A DNA stretch of 64,000 nucleotides from Clostridia bacterium (GCA_045612845.1 JAZKZV010000023.1:71819-135818), one strand, 5' to 3'. Positions 20,404 through 35,969 are shown, counted from the first letter of the stretch. Made by a program: numbers and translations. Notes: generated from the sequence alone by a model not told the origin.

Positions 20404-20404
20404 G

Positions 20405-20620
20405 AAAGCCTCGGTTTTAAAAATGCCTATATGGGCATTTCATGGTGCAGAGGATACGGTTGTCAGCCCGACACAATCGGATGAAATGGTTCTGTAATTA
20501 CAGGAAGCAGGCATGGACGTAACATATACCAGAATCGACGGGGTGGGGCACAATATCTGGGAAAATGCATACAATAAAGAACTGTTAGAATGGTTATTAA
20601 GTAAAAAAAGAAAAGGATAG
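20405..20620 (+). pseudogene. 3' fragment of an alpha/beta-hydrolase (esterase / S9-type) gene with an in-frame stop
   Basis: Translation ...MPIWAFHGAEDTVVSPTQSDEMVL*LQEAGMDVTYTRIDGVGHNIWENAY...LLEWLL carries the Asp (HGxxD) and His (GVGH) regions. The nucleophile half and a start codon are absent. TAA lies at 20495-20497. Confidence 0.6.
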
Positions 20621-22931: not shown

Positions 22932-22958
22932 TTGCATCTAAACCTTATGTGTCACAAT
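22932..22958 (+). repeat. TTGCATCTAAACC-type 27-nt repeat, copy A
   Basis: TTGCATCTAAACCTTATGTGTCACAAT. Confidence 0.8.
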
Positions 22959-24315: not shown

Positions 24316-24342
24316 TTGCATCTAAACCTTATGCCTCGCAAT
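24316..24342 (+). repeat. TTGCATCTAAACC-type 27-nt repeat, copy B
   Basis: TTGCATCTAAACCTTATGCCTCGCAAT. Confidence 0.8.
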
Positions 24343-24366: not shown

Positions 24367-24500
24367 CATTCGTAGCTGAATTGACCTTGAAGTCAGCTAC
24401 AAGGCAAATTTAATTTAGCAGTTTCAAAGAAACAATTTAGCTATGAAGCGAAGCGGAATAATTTGACTTTGAACGGAGTTCAAAAGAGTCGACAATAAAA
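24367..24500 (+). repeat. modular AGCTAAAT element, copy 2 (5'-truncated, no promoter)
   Basis: Aligns with the last module and 3' region of copies 1 and 3 (CATTCGTAGCTGAATTGACC...AGCTACAAGGCAAATTTAATTTAGCAGTTTCAAAGAAACAATTTAGCTAT...TTGAACGGAGTTCAA). Confidence 0.6.
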
Positions 24501-26657: not shown

Positions 26658-26684
26658 TTGCATCTAAACCATATGCCTCGCAAT
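26658..26684 (+). repeat. TTGCATCTAAACC-type 27-nt repeat, copy C
   Basis: TTGCATCTAAACCATATGCCTCGCAAT. Confidence 0.8.
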
Positions 26685-32144: not shown

Positions 32145-34418
32145 ATGTACAACTTTAACGACCTAAAAAGAGAAATTGAAATTAAAAAATATAATACGCC
32201 AACACCATGGATGAACTATCTCTCAAATGGTACATTCCACACAATGATTTCCCAGGCGGGGGGCGGTGTAGCATTTTATAAAAGCCCTCAGATATGGCGA
32301 ATAAATCACTATAAATTCTTTCATATACCAACAGACAGAAGTGGATTTTATATATACATAAAAGACGGTAATGAGTATTGGTGTCCTACAAATGAACCAT
32401 GCAAAACAAAGCCGCAAAAATGGAGTGCTAATCACGGAATGGGATATACCCGTTTTGAAGCGCAAAGAAACGGAATACAAACCACTGCAACATATTTTGT
32501 GGGTAAATATGAAAATTGTCTTATATGGAATCTAACATTAAAATCGGATACGGATAAAAAAATCACTGTTTTCCCATATGTAGAGCTTGGAATGATGGAG
32601 TTTATGCGCGAACTTCAATGGCAATGTTATAATAAGCATCAGCTTACCTGTAAAAATGAAGGAGATATACTAGTCTATACATATGGTGTGGAAAATCAAC
32701 CAAAGCCTGATGAGACACCGCTTGTATACTTTGCAAGTGATGTGCCAATAACTGCATATGATTGCGACAGAGATGAGTTTGTGGGAAGTTACAGAAGTGA
32801 GGAAAATCCGCAGAATGTAGAAAATGGTAGATGCACAAATTCGACAATGTATGGCGGCGACCCATGTTTCGCATTGCAACTTGATATTGAACTTAAAGCT
32901 CACGAGGAAAAAGAGATAAATATATTCCTCGGAACTGAAATGACAAATGAGGGTATACAAAAATCAGTTACACATTGCAGAGAAATGGATTTTGTACAAA
33001 AATCATTTGATGCACTTAACGAGCAGTGGGATACTTACCTCAACAAATTCCAGTGCGAAATCCCTGATAAAGATGCCCAGACGTTAATAAATATCTGGAA
33101 TCCGTATCAGGCGGAAAGAAATTTTCAGTTTTCGAGAAATATAAGCTATTATGCTACGGGAACTTTCAGGGGAGTAGGTGTAAGAGATACTGCTCAGGAT
33201 ATTTTATCAATGGTTCCGTTTGATTTAAGACGTGCAAAGGATAAGCTTAATCTGTTGTTTTCTCAACAGTACAAGGACGGACATTGTAACCACTATTGTT
33301 TCCCTTATGAGGGTTGGGAACCTGTAACACGTATACATTCAGACAACCATTTGTGGCTTGTTATGGCATGCTATAATATAGTTGTTGAGGAGGGTAATTT
33401 AGATTACCTCGATGAAGTTGTTGAATACTACGATGGAGGAGAGGCAACTGTGTGGGAGCATATACAAAAATCTATAGATTTTTGTATGGAAAATCTGGGC
33501 GAGAATGGATTCCCTCTTATGCTTTCGTCAGACTGGAATGATATGCTTTATCGTGTATGTCAAAAGGGAAAGGGTGAAAGTATATGGACATCTATGCAAT
33601 TCGGTACAGTATTACTGCAGATTGCCGAGATTGCCAAATTAAAAGACGGAGATTATAAAAAATATCTTGATATATATAATGAACAAAAGAAATTAGTAAA
33701 TACTGTTGCATGGGATGGTGAATGGTACAGAAGATGTATCACAGATGAGGGTAAATTCATTGGTTCGAAAACAGAGCCGCAGGCAAAAATATGGCTCAAT
33801 ACTCAAAGCTGGTCTGTTATTTCGCAAATGGGTGATGACGGTGAAAAGGCAATGGACAGTGTAAAAAAACATCTTGATACACCACTTGGAATTAAAAAGA
33901 TTGAACCGGCAATGACAACGGATTATCCGACAAAAGAGGGAGCACTCACCTGTTATAATAAAGGTTGTGGTGAGAATGGAAGTGTATTCTGCCATGCAAA
34001 TACATGGGCAATTATTGCAGAGTGTATGCTTAACCGCCCTCAAAATGCATATAAATATTATCACCAACTTATGCCTGTGATTGCACAGAAAAAGGCAGGG
34101 GAGTGGCGGTATAAAGCAGAACCCTATGTATACGCCTCAAACATATTCGGTCCTGAAAGTGATAAATTTGGTCTGGCAAATGTAAGCTGGCTTACCGGTA
34201 CTGCTTCGTGGATGTATATAGCGGTTACTCAATATATGCTTGGTGTAAAAGCTAAATGGGACGGGCTGGATATTTCACCATGCTTGAGTGATGAAATGTT
34301 GCCTGCAAAGGTAACAAGAGAATTCCGCGGATGCAGATATGAGATTACAATAACAAAAAATGAGAAGTTATTTATTCCGCATGTTAAGGGCAGAAAACAA
34401 TTAGAAGTTACTATATAA
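32145..34418 (+). CDS. GH94-like glycoside phosphorylase (cellobiose/chitobiose phosphorylase family)
   Basis: N-terminus TPTPWMNYLSNG...GGGVAFYKS and the SSDWNDML catalytic-Asp motif. Start chosen at ATG 32145, 7 nt after GGAGGA. Confidence 0.6.
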   Translation: MYNFNDLKREIEIKKYNTPTPWMNYLSNGTFHTMISQAGGGVAFYKSPQIWRINHYKFFHIPTDRSGFYIYIKDGNEYWCPTNEPCKTKPQKWSANHGMGYTRFEAQRNGIQTTATYFVGKYENCLIWNLTLKSDTDKKITVFPYVELGMMEFMRELQWQCYNKHQLTCKNEGDILVYTYGVENQPKPDETPLVYFASDVPITAYDCDRDEFVGSYRSEENPQNVENGRCTNSTMYGGDPCFALQLDIELKAHEEKEINIFLGTEMTNEGIQKSVTHCREMDFVQKSFDALNEQWDTYLNKFQCEIPDKDAQTLINIWNPYQAERNFQFSRNISYYATGTFRGVGVRDTAQDILSMVPFDLRRAKDKLNLLFSQQYKDGHCNHYCFPYEGWEPVTRIHSDNHLWLVMACYNIVVEEGNLDYLDEVVEYYDGGEATVWEHIQKSIDFCMENLGENGFPLMLSSDWNDMLYRVCQKGKGESIWTSMQFGTVLLQIAEIAKLKDGDYKKYLDIYNEQKKLVNTVAWDGEWYRRCITDEGKFIGSKTEPQAKIWLNTQSWSVISQMGDDGEKAMDSVKKHLDTPLGIKKIEPAMTTDYPTKEGALTCYNKGCGENGSVFCHANTWAIIAECMLNRPQNAYKYYHQLMPVIAQKKAGEWRYKAEPYVYASNIFGPESDKFGLANVSWLTGTASWMYIAVTQYMLGVKAKWDGLDISPCLSDEMLPAKVTREFRGCRYEITITKNEKLFIPHVKGRKQLEVTI

Positions 34419-34425
34419 TTATGGG

Positions 34426-34458
34426 AAAGGTTGCAAAATATTTTGCAACCTTTTTATA
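34426..34458. terminator. bidirectional terminator between the phosphorylase gene and spoIIID
   Basis: AAAGGTTGCAAAA / TTTTGCAACCTTT stem. Confidence 0.8.
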
Positions 34459-34461
34459 TTA

Positions 34462-34740
34462 TTATTTGTGTATTTTAAGTTCTCTTTGTATGCGATACTT
34501 GTTCTTAGTTGCCAATCCACCGCGTATATGTCGTTCCGCTTTATTAGTGTCAAGAACCTTTTTTGTTTCGGTGTAAAGTTGCGGATTTATCTTTAACAGT
34601 CGTTCGTGCACATCCTTATGTACGGTACTTTTACTTATATTAAAAACCTTTGCGGTCTTCCTGACTGTTGTGTTGTTTTCTGTTATGTATTGTGCAAGCT
34701 CTATTGCTCGTTTTTCTATATAATCCTTCAAAAATTCCAC
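34462..34740 (-). CDS. spoIIID: sporulation transcriptional regulator SpoIIID
   Basis: 92 aa with a GTG start. HTH TVRKTAKVFNISKSTVHKDV and the basic tail RHIRGGLATK. Confidence 0.85.
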   Translation of the reverse strand: MEFLKDYIEKRAIELAQYITENNTTVRKTAKVFNISKSTVHKDVHERLLKINPQLYTETKKVLDTNKAERHIRGGLATKNKYRIQRELKIHK

Positions 34741-34755
34741 CGACCTTTCTTCTAC

Positions 34756-34784
34756 AATATATGAACTTTATAGGTGAATTATGA
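34756..34784 (-). promoter_or_regulatory. possible sigma-E type promoter of spoIIID
   Basis: On the minus strand, TCATAATT then 13 nt then CATATATT, loosely like the ATATT / CATACA-T consensus. Confidence 0.3.
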
Positions 34785-34836
34785 GATGAAATTTTTATTT
34801 GTATATACGCAGTTTCTACAAAATTTAATAACGGTA

Positions 34837-34865
34837 TTGTTATTTTTAAGATGTTGTGGTAGAAT
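34837..34865 (+). promoter_or_regulatory. sigma-A type promoter driving modular element copy 3
   Basis: TTGTTA (34837-34842), 17-nt spacer, TGG-TAGAAT (34860-34865). Confidence 0.6.
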
Positions 34866-34867
34866 AG

Positions 34868-35070
34868 ATTTAACAAAGTTAAATCTATTCAGCTAAATTC
34901 GCCTGACGACGAGCTAAATTGACTTCGTCAGCTAAATTTGTTAACACAAGCTAAATGTGCTTCGCACGCTAAAAGCGAATTTAATTTAGCTGTTTCTAAG
35001 AAACAATTTGGCTATCGAATGAAATGAGATAATTTGGCTTTGAACTTTAGTTCAAAATTTAGCTAAAAAG
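34868..35070 (+). ncRNA. modular AGCTAAAT/mini-hairpin element, copy 3 (most complete)
   Basis: 5' box TTTAACAAAGTTAAAT. AGCTAAAT at 34891, 34912, 34930 and 34949, and GCTAAAA at 34968. Interleaved hairpins TGAC-TTC-GTCA, TTGT-TAAC-ACAA and GTGC-TTC-GCAC. Closing stem TAAATTCGC (34894-34902) / GCGAATTTA (34975-34983). 3' hairpins GTTTC-TAA-GAAAC and TTGAAC-TTTA-GTTCAA. Confidence 0.55.
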
Positions 35071-35263
35071 GTTGACATCTAAATTGTATACTGATTTATT
35101 ACTGATTTCAACAAAGATGAAATCAGAATATAAATCTTTTGAGAGATTTCGATTGTAGAGAAGGAGTTTGCTCCTTCCAAAAAAAACATATCGATTTCAG
35201 GACAGTAAAAATATCGGATAAGCTTTAGTTTGTATATCGGCAGAGTTTAGAAAGGAAGGCAAA

Positions 35264-35680
35264 ATGAAGAAGGTTGTAATGTTTGGAATAATTGCTATGA
35301 TGTGTTTGTTCTTGATATCTTGCGGGAATGAGGCACAAAACATAAGTGTGTGGGAAAGTGCTACATACCTGGAGGATACGACATTTGGTGATGGCTCAAA
35401 AACTGTATTGGTGGAAATTGAGGCAGAGGACAGGTCTGTAACATTTACAATAAACACCGACCAAGAAAAACTTGGTGATGCCTTGCTTGAACATGACCTG
35501 GTATCCGGAGAAAAGGGAGCATATGGACTTTATATTAAAACAGTAAACGGAATTACTGCTGACTATAACATAAATAAAACATACTGGGCTATTACAAAAG
35601 ATGGCGAGAGTATGCTTAGCGGTGTTGATAGTACTGATATCTCAGACGGAGAGCACTATGAGTTGGTTTATACGAAATAA
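35264..35680 (+). CDS. DUF4430-type lipoprotein (transcobalamin-like fold family)
   Basis: Lipobox LFLISCG. Small secreted beta-rich domain. Confidence 0.5.
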   Translation: MKKVVMFGIIAMMCLFLISCGNEAQNISVWESATYLEDTTFGDGSKTVLVEIEAEDRSVTFTINTDQEKLGDALLEHDLVSGEKGAYGLYIKTVNGITADYNINKTYWAITKDGESMLSGVDSTDISDGEHYELVYTK

Positions 35681-35711: not shown

Positions 35712-35969
35712 ATGAAAAATAATCATACATATTTTAAAAATACTGAATGTGAATATTTTCCTTGTCATAAAATGAATGGTGAAACTTTTAACTGTCTGTT
35801 TTGCTATTGTCCGTTATATGATTTGGACGACAAGTGTGGGGGAAAGTTTTCTTACACAGAAGACGGGGTAAAGGACTGTTCGGATTGTCTTATTCCGCAT
35901 AGCGAAAATGGATATTCTTATGTAATGTCCAAAATTTCCCGAACAGGCAACAAAAATAAAACCGAATAA
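35712..35969 (+). CDS. cysteine-rich small domain protein (metal-binding)
   Basis: CEYFPCH...CLFCYCPLY...CSDC pattern. Confidence 0.5.
   Translation: MKNNHTYFKNTECEYFPCHKMNGETFNCLFCYCPLYDLDDKCGGKFSYTEDGVKDCSDCLIPHSENGYSYVMSKISRTGNKNKTE

Follow-up and report, generated by a model that had tools for sequence, protein, structure and literature searches.

The region between spoIIID and a DUF4430 lipoprotein gene in a 64,000-nt stretch of DNA from a Clostridia bacterium (GCA_045612845.1, JAZKZV010000023.1:71819-135818; hereafter the window) is occupied by a modular array of short hairpins, termed copy 3 (34837-35064), and the question is what kind of element this is and whether it acts on either neighbour. 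An earlier annotation of the window (the sequence-only reading) had taken it for a possible leader of the DUF4430 gene, with expression perhaps linked to sporulation through the intergenic region shared with spoIIID. On balance, we consider it probable that copy 3 is an orphan, full-length copy, with its own promoter, of a mobile element of about 230 nt built as a modular array of hairpins, which in relatives forms the RNA leader or platform of genes for PF05635 proteins and in this genome is a relic. As judged by comparison with related loci, it is most likely the partner-less relic of a mobile cassette made up of an array and a gene. The region read was 34400-35600, and all coordinates count from the start of the window.

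Copy 3 begins with a sigma-A-type promoter on the + strand (34837-34865), which consists of a -35 box TTGTTA (34837-34842), a 17-nt spacer and an extended -10 box TGG-TAGAAT (34857-34865; TGGTAGAAT after N17), and which scored 9/12 with the TG motif in a consensus scan. Its start lies 97 bp from the GTG codon of spoIIID (34740), on the opposite strand, exactly where the sequence-only reading had placed it. The promoter leads into a 5' hairpin, hp0 (the 'AACAAAG box', 34862-34890, + strand), with the sequence GAATAGATTTAAC-AAA-GTTAAATCTATTC, a 13-bp perfect inverted repeat that is kept as GATTTAACnnnGTTAAATC in type-a loci. The transcript would probably start inside the 5' arm of hp0. The 5' half that follows (34891-34967, + strand) is composed of four AGCUAAAU linkers (the 5' or U words) alternating with the hairpins hp1 (34899-34912), hp2 (34920-34930), hp3 (34938-34949) and hp4 (34957-34967), of which hp1 contains one C.A mismatch. 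The linkers, and with them the word AGCTAAAT, start at 34891, 34912, 34930 and 34949; this word occurs 12 times in the window as compared with 4.9 expected, a number reached in 0/100 shuffles.

A degenerate fifth unit at 34968, GCTAAAA (GCUAAAA in the RNA), is followed by the centre of the element, GCGAAUUUA-AUUUAGCU (unit and centre together 34968-34991, + strand), which holds the first 3' word, V1 (34983-34991). Both the four perfect units with their degenerate fifth and the 'closing stem', in which GCGAATTTAATTTAGCT (34975-34991) is complementary to CAGCTAAATTCGC (34890-34902), had been described correctly. The centre proved to be the reverse complement of U1 and the 5' arm of hp1, with a 5-nt duplication. 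In the 3' half (34992-35064, + strand), the hairpins hp5 (34992-35004), hp6 (35014-35030, with tandem G.A pairs) and hp7 (35040-35055) alternate with the 3' words V2 (AAUUUGGCU, 35005-35013), V3 (AAUUUGGCU, 35031-35039) and V4 (AAUUUAGCU, 35056-35064). The 3' region is thus an array of the word AATTT[A/G]GCT (AATTTAGCT or AATTTGGCT) at 34983, 35005, 35031 and 35056 with hairpins between, and the V words of copy 3 are the reverse complements of its U words, a feature not listed in the earlier annotation. The complete layout is therefore promoter, hp0, four AGCUAAAU+hairpin units, centre, and three hairpin+AAUUURGCU units.

The 3' region is common to copy 3 and copy 2 (24367-24500) and includes in both a GTTTC hairpin, GGCTAT and a TTGAAC hairpin, the loop of which is TTTA in copy 3 and GGAG in copy 2; this similarity and the difference in the loop had also been noted. 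Copy 3 is the best-preserved copy in the window, as claimed before, having a full set of 4+4 words, and is slightly decayed, as seen from the C.A mismatch in hp1 and two variant words. A terminator scan revealed no terminator-like site on the + strand between 34866 and 35263, in agreement with the earlier view that none is convincing, and since no terminator follows copy 3, read-through towards the DUF4430 gene is possible. Copy 1 (window 20404-20600) is without its 3' half and is followed directly by an apparent C-terminal fragment of an alpha/beta-hydrolase gene (...HGAEDTVVSPTQSDEMVL*). The position of this fragment after the truncated array points to a deleted or rearranged segment, one end of which lay in the array.

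The host genome (1.87 Mb, 37% G+C, 98.8% complete) contains 13 array loci, a number not given before, of which only three are full 4+4 copies (C6:146791, C23:302 and copy 3); fragments of the Gut-1 class discussed below are also present. A pattern scan with one genome per species gave at least 120 stretches, and those listed were nearly all from rumen or gut Clostridia (Ruminococcus, Oscillospiraceae and Acutalibacteraceae metagenome-assembled genomes). In an alignment of 39 canonical copies of the class, named GCUAAAU after its word, the four GCTAAAT words ((A)GCUAAAU linkers), the centre AATT.AATTTAGC and three ATTT.GC words were invariant. The hairpins behaved differently from the linkers: all 17 of the 17 hairpin pairs showed compensatory changes, and 21/24 linker pairs never varied. 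Paired cells amounted to 98.7% as compared with 83.9% in shuffles, and the covariation score was 0.365 as compared with 0.089 in shuffles (0/500 reached it) and at most 0.077 with the partners slid. An arm paired with its own partner at 84-97% of positions and, in hp2-hp7, with the arms of other copies at 40-56% only. The centre covaries across genomes with the arm of hp1 (TTGC/GCAA, CGGC/GCCG).

The promoter is conserved as well. A module of TTGnnn-N17-TGnTAGAAT and an AACAnnG hairpin precedes 23 arrays in many genomes, with boxes and spacing conserved and spacers unrelated, which makes the promoter assigned to copy 3 credible. One variant of the third 3' word, AAUUUCGCU, is found in 12/39 copies; covariation of this variant with the centre was sought in the alignment and showed no clear pattern. 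The stems of the 39 copies display almost only double substitutions, one-sided G-U intermediates accounting for 3 of ~650 cells; this scarcity may reflect very short, wobble-intolerant stems or palindrome correction at the DNA level. Arrays expanded to 6-12 units with near-identical neighbouring hairpins and arrays with 50-90-nt insertions in a hairpin or in the centre were seen as well (among L004, L007, L009, L048; L093, L104, L119; L016, L022). The near-identity of neighbouring hairpins in the expanded arrays points to recent duplication of units.

Folding of copy 3 gave a minimum free energy of -45.5 kcal/mol, as compared with -35.0 kcal/mol for an idealised ladder of seven hairpins and four U:V helices and -15.8 kcal/mol for the hairpins alone. 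The ladder is thus 19 kcal/mol better than the hairpins alone, and the best fold of copy 3 makes use of the U:V helices. Two A-to-G changes in V2 and V3 of copy 3 preserve pairing with the U words, as U.G wobbles, on the + strand only. The 3' half showed 5 G.U versus 1 A.C combinations, which favours the + strand, as do the tandem G.A pairs in hp6. A + strand RNA is further indicated by the promoter, which is conserved in 23 loci and placed for a start in hp0, by the orientation of the arrays relative to flanking genes, and by their location in the position of a 5' untranslated region before PF05635 genes.

A link to a known motif was provided by Rfam. Gut-1 (RF01706) was listed as a 'human gut only', non-coding RNA motif of unknown function (Weinberg et al. 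2010, PMC2864571). Its consensus consists of hairpins joined by GUGAAAU, and its gathering score is 50 bits. Copy 3 matched the Gut-1 covariance model on 34890-34961 with 16.0 bits (E = 0.9-2.2) and, being below the 50-bit threshold, is not a Gut-1 member by the Rfam rule. No Rfam family reached its gathering threshold in the window, where Gut-1 was the only suggestive weak match, and no Rfam match with E < 0.01 was obtained in 34760-35280. The best Gut-1 match in a search of the whole host genome (E = 7.8e-6) was below the cut-off. Of 151 genomes belonging to the same order, 67 had RF01706 matches, which exceeded the cut-off in 45, with up to 29 matches per genome.

Reading of the flanks of the 12 best Gut-1 loci revealed hp0 and four GUGAAAU+hairpin units, followed beyond a centre by three to four hairpin+AUUUCAC units. 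The Gut-1 centre, GGAUUUAUUUC-AUUUCAC, mirrors U1 and the arm of hp1 with a 5-nt duplication. Given this grammar, the element has two parts, and only the first of them, the 5' half, is represented in the Rfam model. Full copies of a third class, with the words CGAUAUG and CAUAUCG (L156-L160), follow the same two-part grammar. Hence all three fully read classes (GUGAAAU, GCUAAAU and CGAUAUG) have 5' and 3' words that are reverse complements of each other and a centre mirroring U1 and the hp1 arm. The GCUAAAU class shares with Gut-1 tandem short hairpins (at least three) with covarying stems, an invariant 7-nt linker ending in AAAU, the host order, the whole succession of hp0, four units, mirroring centre and 3' reverse-complement units, a site after tRNA or transfer-messenger RNA (tmRNA) genes, and a PF05635 neighbour. 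It differs in the linker, which is (A)GCUAAAU in 39/39 aligned copies and GUGAAAU in Gut-1, and in that the Rfam model spans the 5' half only. Judged by this grammar, the class of copy 3 is sister to the one of which Rfam Gut-1 represents the 5' half. Further classes with a word and its reverse complement were found upstream of PF05635 genes, namely GUGRUAU, UGAAUUG, GUGAAGU, AAUGAUG, AGUUAUG and AUGAAGC.

Many PF05635 genes are preceded by tandem heptamers without hairpins, for example (GTGAATA)n, followed by a short loop and reverse-complement heptamers, so that the whole forms one long inverted repeat. Such repeats often stand directly after tRNA genes (among loci L146-L151, L162, L199, L210-L215, L225, L228 and L235). 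A (GTGAATA)3 run also follows the array C23:302-468 of the host genome (C23:469-500).

The protein associated with the arrays was recognised from a conserved open reading frame (ORF), beginning MAESIMLDK, that follows several of them and belongs to PF05635, the 23S rRNA-IVS (intervening sequence) protein family (E = 2e-28), whose members are small four-helix-bundle proteins. PF05635 genes are present in 74/151 genomes of the order, and many start within about 250 nt downstream of the 5' half of an array on the same strand, as judged by the listed coordinates. At L149, L153 and L154, a promoter of the copy 3 type, hp0 and an array are followed after ~25 nt by the PF05635 gene, with no terminator between. 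A leader specific to the DUF4430 gene is therefore not supported for this module, which leads a PF05635 gene in relatives. At copy 3, the gene directly downstream on the same strand encodes DUF4430 and not PF05635, and no PF05635 match at E <= 0.01 was found in the host genome, nor any in the six congeners sampled.

The upstream regions of 91 PF05635 genes were read, and a maximum-likelihood tree was built of the 91 proteins. The GCUAAAU, GUGRUAU, UGAAUUG, CGAUAU and AGUUAUG classes each correspond to a single well-supported clade, and the word labels require 19 changes on the tree as compared with 58 in shuffles. Arrays and PF05635 co-occur by genome with an odds ratio of 8 (55/20/19/57 genomes with both, array only, PF05635 only and neither), the sequences compared being related and physically linked. 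The association is weak when counted by array and strong when counted by gene.

To our knowledge, PF05635, which includes the 23S-rRNA-IVS and stand-alone Avd-like proteins, is a large family without a known role. Intervening sequences in 23S rRNA genes can carry a PF05635 ORF, and Avd is a protein of diversity-generating retroelements. The arrays have in common with these systems the gene family and its location beside or inside a stable-RNA gene, adjoining a long self-complementary RNA segment. They differ in that the ORF lies downstream of the paired arrays and not within the stem, in that neither a reverse transcriptase nor template/variable repeats were seen beside the cassettes examined, and in that the host genome of copy 3 is devoid of any PF05635 gene. 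One locus (L145, G035:C9:41037-44354) has a PF05635 gene inside a 23S rRNA gene as a classical intervening sequence, with heptamer-like repeats (TAAATAG...) before it.

In 9/12 of the best Gut-1 loci, and likewise in many loci of the GCUAAAU class, ARAGORN placed the end of a tRNA or tmRNA gene ~40 nt ahead of the array, and gene and array invariably had the same orientation. The terminator-like hp0 between tRNA and array travels with the array, the same hairpins being found behind different tRNAs and in different word classes. Arrays are co-oriented with the downstream ORF in 50/64 cases and with the upstream ORF in 55/68.

Evidence of mobility came from close relatives. The copy at C17:255.7k of the host genome is a ~200-nt insertion between two conserved genes, whose flanks are joined in the congeners G151 and G122, a precise empty site; a third congener, G070, also lacks the array and has 73 nt of unrelated spacer instead. 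The element is thus multi-copy, with 13 loci, and has empty sites in close relatives, as is typical of miniature inverted-repeat transposable elements (MITE) and mosaic repeats. Downstream of tRNA-Asn, the host genome has a GCUAAAU cassette, whereas G122 has a heptamer-type remnant and another terminator. The remaining host-genome copies are found where synteny breaks down or within segments specific to the lineage. A possible 2-bp duplication and GGGATRT ends were seen at one copy; these ends are not shared by other copies, and a terminal-repeat search revealed no second element with GGGATRTRCGG ends. Only 2 genuine arrays were found among 119 pattern matches on viral contigs, and hence no link to phages is apparent.

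Comparison with relatives also bears on the relation of copy 3 to spoIIID (34462-34740, - strand; Pfam PF12116). In the three closest congeners, which are 79-89% identical over spoIIID, similarity stops at ~34815, ~20 bp before copy 3, the neighbours differ, and no array is present next to spoIIID. Synteny and the type of promoter both speak against the suggested sporulation-linked expression, which was rejected: the promoter resembles those of sigma-A, and elsewhere the module is found next to unrelated genes. In the host genome, copy 3 marks a lineage-specific junction beside spoIIID and may contribute a promoter only. The upstream region of spoIIID itself (34741-34815, - strand), which is conserved with the congeners, contains by eye a sigma-E-like -10 box (CATATATT) and -35 box (TCATAAT), and this conserved block ends ~20 bp short of the copy 3 promoter.

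Several findings weigh against an RNA leader or platform paired with PF05635. In the unbiased locus set, a PF05635 gene adjoins only 11/120 arrays, and 20/75 array-bearing genomes have no PF05635 at all. As array and gene are physically linked, the match between clade and word demonstrates co-inheritance as a unit and does not prove recognition. In the 5' half, 3 G.U versus 8 A.C combinations were counted, which favours neither strand clearly, and G.U pairs make up ~0.7% of the stems, being no commoner than A.C; such near-absence of G.U is unusual for selection on RNA alone. Because the linker helices never vary within a class, the U:V pairing rests on comparison between classes and on energy, and the same linker pattern would be expected of two DNA binding sites in inverted orientation. 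The V3 variant AAUUUCGCU also introduces a U.C mismatch into a linker helix. Finally, the proposed mobile element could not be assigned a transposase, clear terminal repeats or a target duplication.

The main rival is a purely DNA-level mobile or mosaic repeat of the MITE or BIME type, in which the inverted words would be sites for a transposase, a recombinase or a nucleoid protein, the hairpins would be quasi-palindromes corrected by template switching, and the RNA fold would be incidental. It was retained because template-switch correction of DNA quasi-palindromes could mimic covariation, and it agrees with the almost purely Watson-Crick stems free of G.U excess, with the mirroring of the left and right halves, and with the shuffling of modules (hp0 types, a 27-mer box described below, and halves) between loci and classes. 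The existence of truncated and internally deleted copies, the precise empty site in two congeners, the different cassettes at one tRNA-Asn 3' end and the 25-nt direct repeats flanking the L116 element are likewise expected of such a repeat. We nevertheless regard it as unlikely as a full account. The orientation bias towards flanking genes is strong (78-81%), the promoter is conserved exactly at hp0 in 23 loci, the tandem G.A pairs of hp6 and the G.U-preserving word variants of copy 3 work on the + strand only, and the words are spaced by 16-22 bp without helical phase. Neither a transposase nor consistent terminal repeats were found, and viral contigs yielded only the 2 genuine arrays mentioned above. 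Like REP/BIME of enterobacteria, BOX of pneumococcus and Correia elements of Neisseria, as these are generally known, the arrays are short modular repeats that lie between genes in many copies; their unit number varies, and they make up a long, imperfect palindrome able to fold in the transcript. Promoters are carried by some copies, and close strains differ in the copies present. The arrays differ in that only the 7-9-nt word is repeated, the hairpins between covarying without conservation of sequence, in that many word classes exist in parallel, with a protein clade for each, and in their preference for tRNA and tmRNA 3' ends; no mobilising enzyme is known for them.

Two further accounts assign the element a role of its own in the host. 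By analogy with CsrB/RsmZ, the array might be a trans-acting sponge or scaffold small RNA, the single-stranded GCUAAAU words of which would titrate some RNA-binding protein of the host that does not belong to PF05635. The 4-5 copies of an invariant 7-nt word, set between variable hairpins, and the element's own promoter fit this idea, which would also explain the persistence of arrays in the 20 array-bearing genomes, including the host of copy 3, that are without PF05635. It is improbable, as the 5' words would be sequestered in cis by pairing with their 3' complements, the word class tracks the PF05635 clade and not a housekeeping protein, host-genome copies are often truncated or decayed, and no terminator delimits a discrete small RNA at copy 3. 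The view of the sequence-only reading, a cis-regulatory leader of the DUF4430 gene coupled to sporulation, draws on the fact that no terminator separates the promoter (34837) from the start of the DUF4430 gene (35264) and on a downstream promoter-like box with a poor -10. It appears the least plausible of all, very unlikely in our judgement: the module occurs beside unrelated genes in many genomes and beside PF05635 genes in relatives, the promoter is sigma-A-like and the adjacency to spoIIID is lineage-specific, no Rfam riboswitch or leader match was found in 34760-35280 and no terminator-like site before the gene, and the stretch before the DUF4430 gene is a decayed array of another class.

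Returning to the array as leader or platform of a PF05635 gene, the following course of events can be proposed. The element would be transcribed from its own promoter to give a + strand RNA of ~200 nt. In the model, this RNA would zip into a rod, in which four U:V linker helices of 8-9 bp alternate with three four-way junctions bearing the variable hairpins. In gene-bearing genomes, the array RNA may serve as a specific binding platform or as an autoregulatory leader of the PF05635 protein. The closest solved structures matching an F2-linked PF05635 protein, PDB 2RLD and 2GSC, have five chains each, which would suit a pentamer, and each half of an array has four to five words. Copies of the array may spread or be exchanged as cassettes. 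In the host genome, copy 3 would at most supply promoter activity, perhaps reading through the decayed array into the DUF4430 operon.

A more far-reaching proposal, which we put forward tentatively and with more doubt than the above, is that arrays and PF05635 proteins form a system of matched recognition. Each clade, probably as a pentamer, would read its own 7-base word shown four to five times on a four-way-junction ladder, and the array+gene cassette with its portable terminator would represent a new kind of mobile unit targeting the 3' ends of tRNA, tmRNA and rRNA genes. If true, this would provide a function for the large orphan '23S rRNA IVS protein' family and for Gut-1. An orphan motif since 2010, Gut-1 here turns out to be one half of an element with two parts, and its word class to be one of many in parallel. 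As each class is co-inherited with its own PF05635 clade beside stable-RNA genes, the two open questions of Gut-1 and PF05635 become one testable pairing, protein X with word X. No description of GCUAAAU arrays or of a link between arrays and PF05635 was found in the literature; what is added here is the two-part reverse-complement grammar, the linkage to tRNA and tmRNA genes with portable terminators, the orientation bias and the empty-site evidence.

The segment between copy 3 and the DUF4430 gene contains remains of a further class. A promoter-like box, TTGACATCTAAAT... (35072-35100, + strand; TTGACATCTAAAT itself 35072-35084), is a variant of a genome-wide 27-mer, GCATCTAAA. Its -10 is poor (TTTATT/ATTACT), and it was not called on the + strand by the promoter consensus scan; in relatives (L159, L160), the same 27-mer box has TATAAT or TATAAA at its end and stands 20-35 nt ahead of a gene. 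The box at 35072 precedes a second hairpin of the hp0 type, CTGATTTCA-ACAAAGA-TGAAATCAG (35102-35126, + strand), a 9-bp perfect inverted repeat that has GATTTnAACAAAGnTnAAATC in common with hp0. Both the box at 35072 and this hairpin had been pointed out before, and the suggestion of tandem or nested family members was right in substance, since the second hairpin introduces a collapsed sister-class array with the words CGAUAU/AUAUCG.

This collapsed and decayed array of the CGAUAUG class (35127-35239, + strand), absent from the earlier annotation, was identified by BLAST of 35130-35263 against relatives and shares 80-91% identity with the 3' halves of complete CGAUAUG arrays from other genomes. 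It retains a degenerate U1 and hp1 (AAATCT/AGATTT, 35127-35149), CGATTG (35150-35155), a hairpin GAAGGAG/CTCCTTC (35160-35177) and three AUAUCG words at 35188, 35211 and 35234; the inner units and the centre are gone. A second fragment of this class is present in the host genome at C17:74111. The DUF4430 lipoprotein gene (35264-35680, + strand), assigned by Pfam, is followed by a gene for a Cys-rich small domain (35712-35969), with matches to PF14478 and PF04071.

The 27-mer box, with the consensus (T/G)GCATCTAAA(C/T)C.T..G....(CGCAATA or TATAAT), occurs in the window at 22932-22958, 24316-24342, 26658-26684 and 35072-35100 and at many sites in the genome. It is often located 20-35 nt ahead of a gene start, immediately behind an array, or in front of an hp0 of the GCGGTC type, and at L116 it forms a 25-nt direct repeat on the two sides of the array. 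The box may represent either a class of promoters whose spacer is conserved or a site resembling an attachment site. Assignment as a sigma-54, sporulation-sigma or extracytoplasmic function (ECF) promoter was a poor fit by eye and was dropped, and only the term 'promoter-like box' was retained for GCATCTAAA. Another repeat, of ~100-190 nt (C6:146528-146720, that is, L243 1528-1720), adjoins two arrays on C6 and has dozens of copies in G151, G122 and G070, and a further repeat at L242 1028-1305 behaves in the same way.

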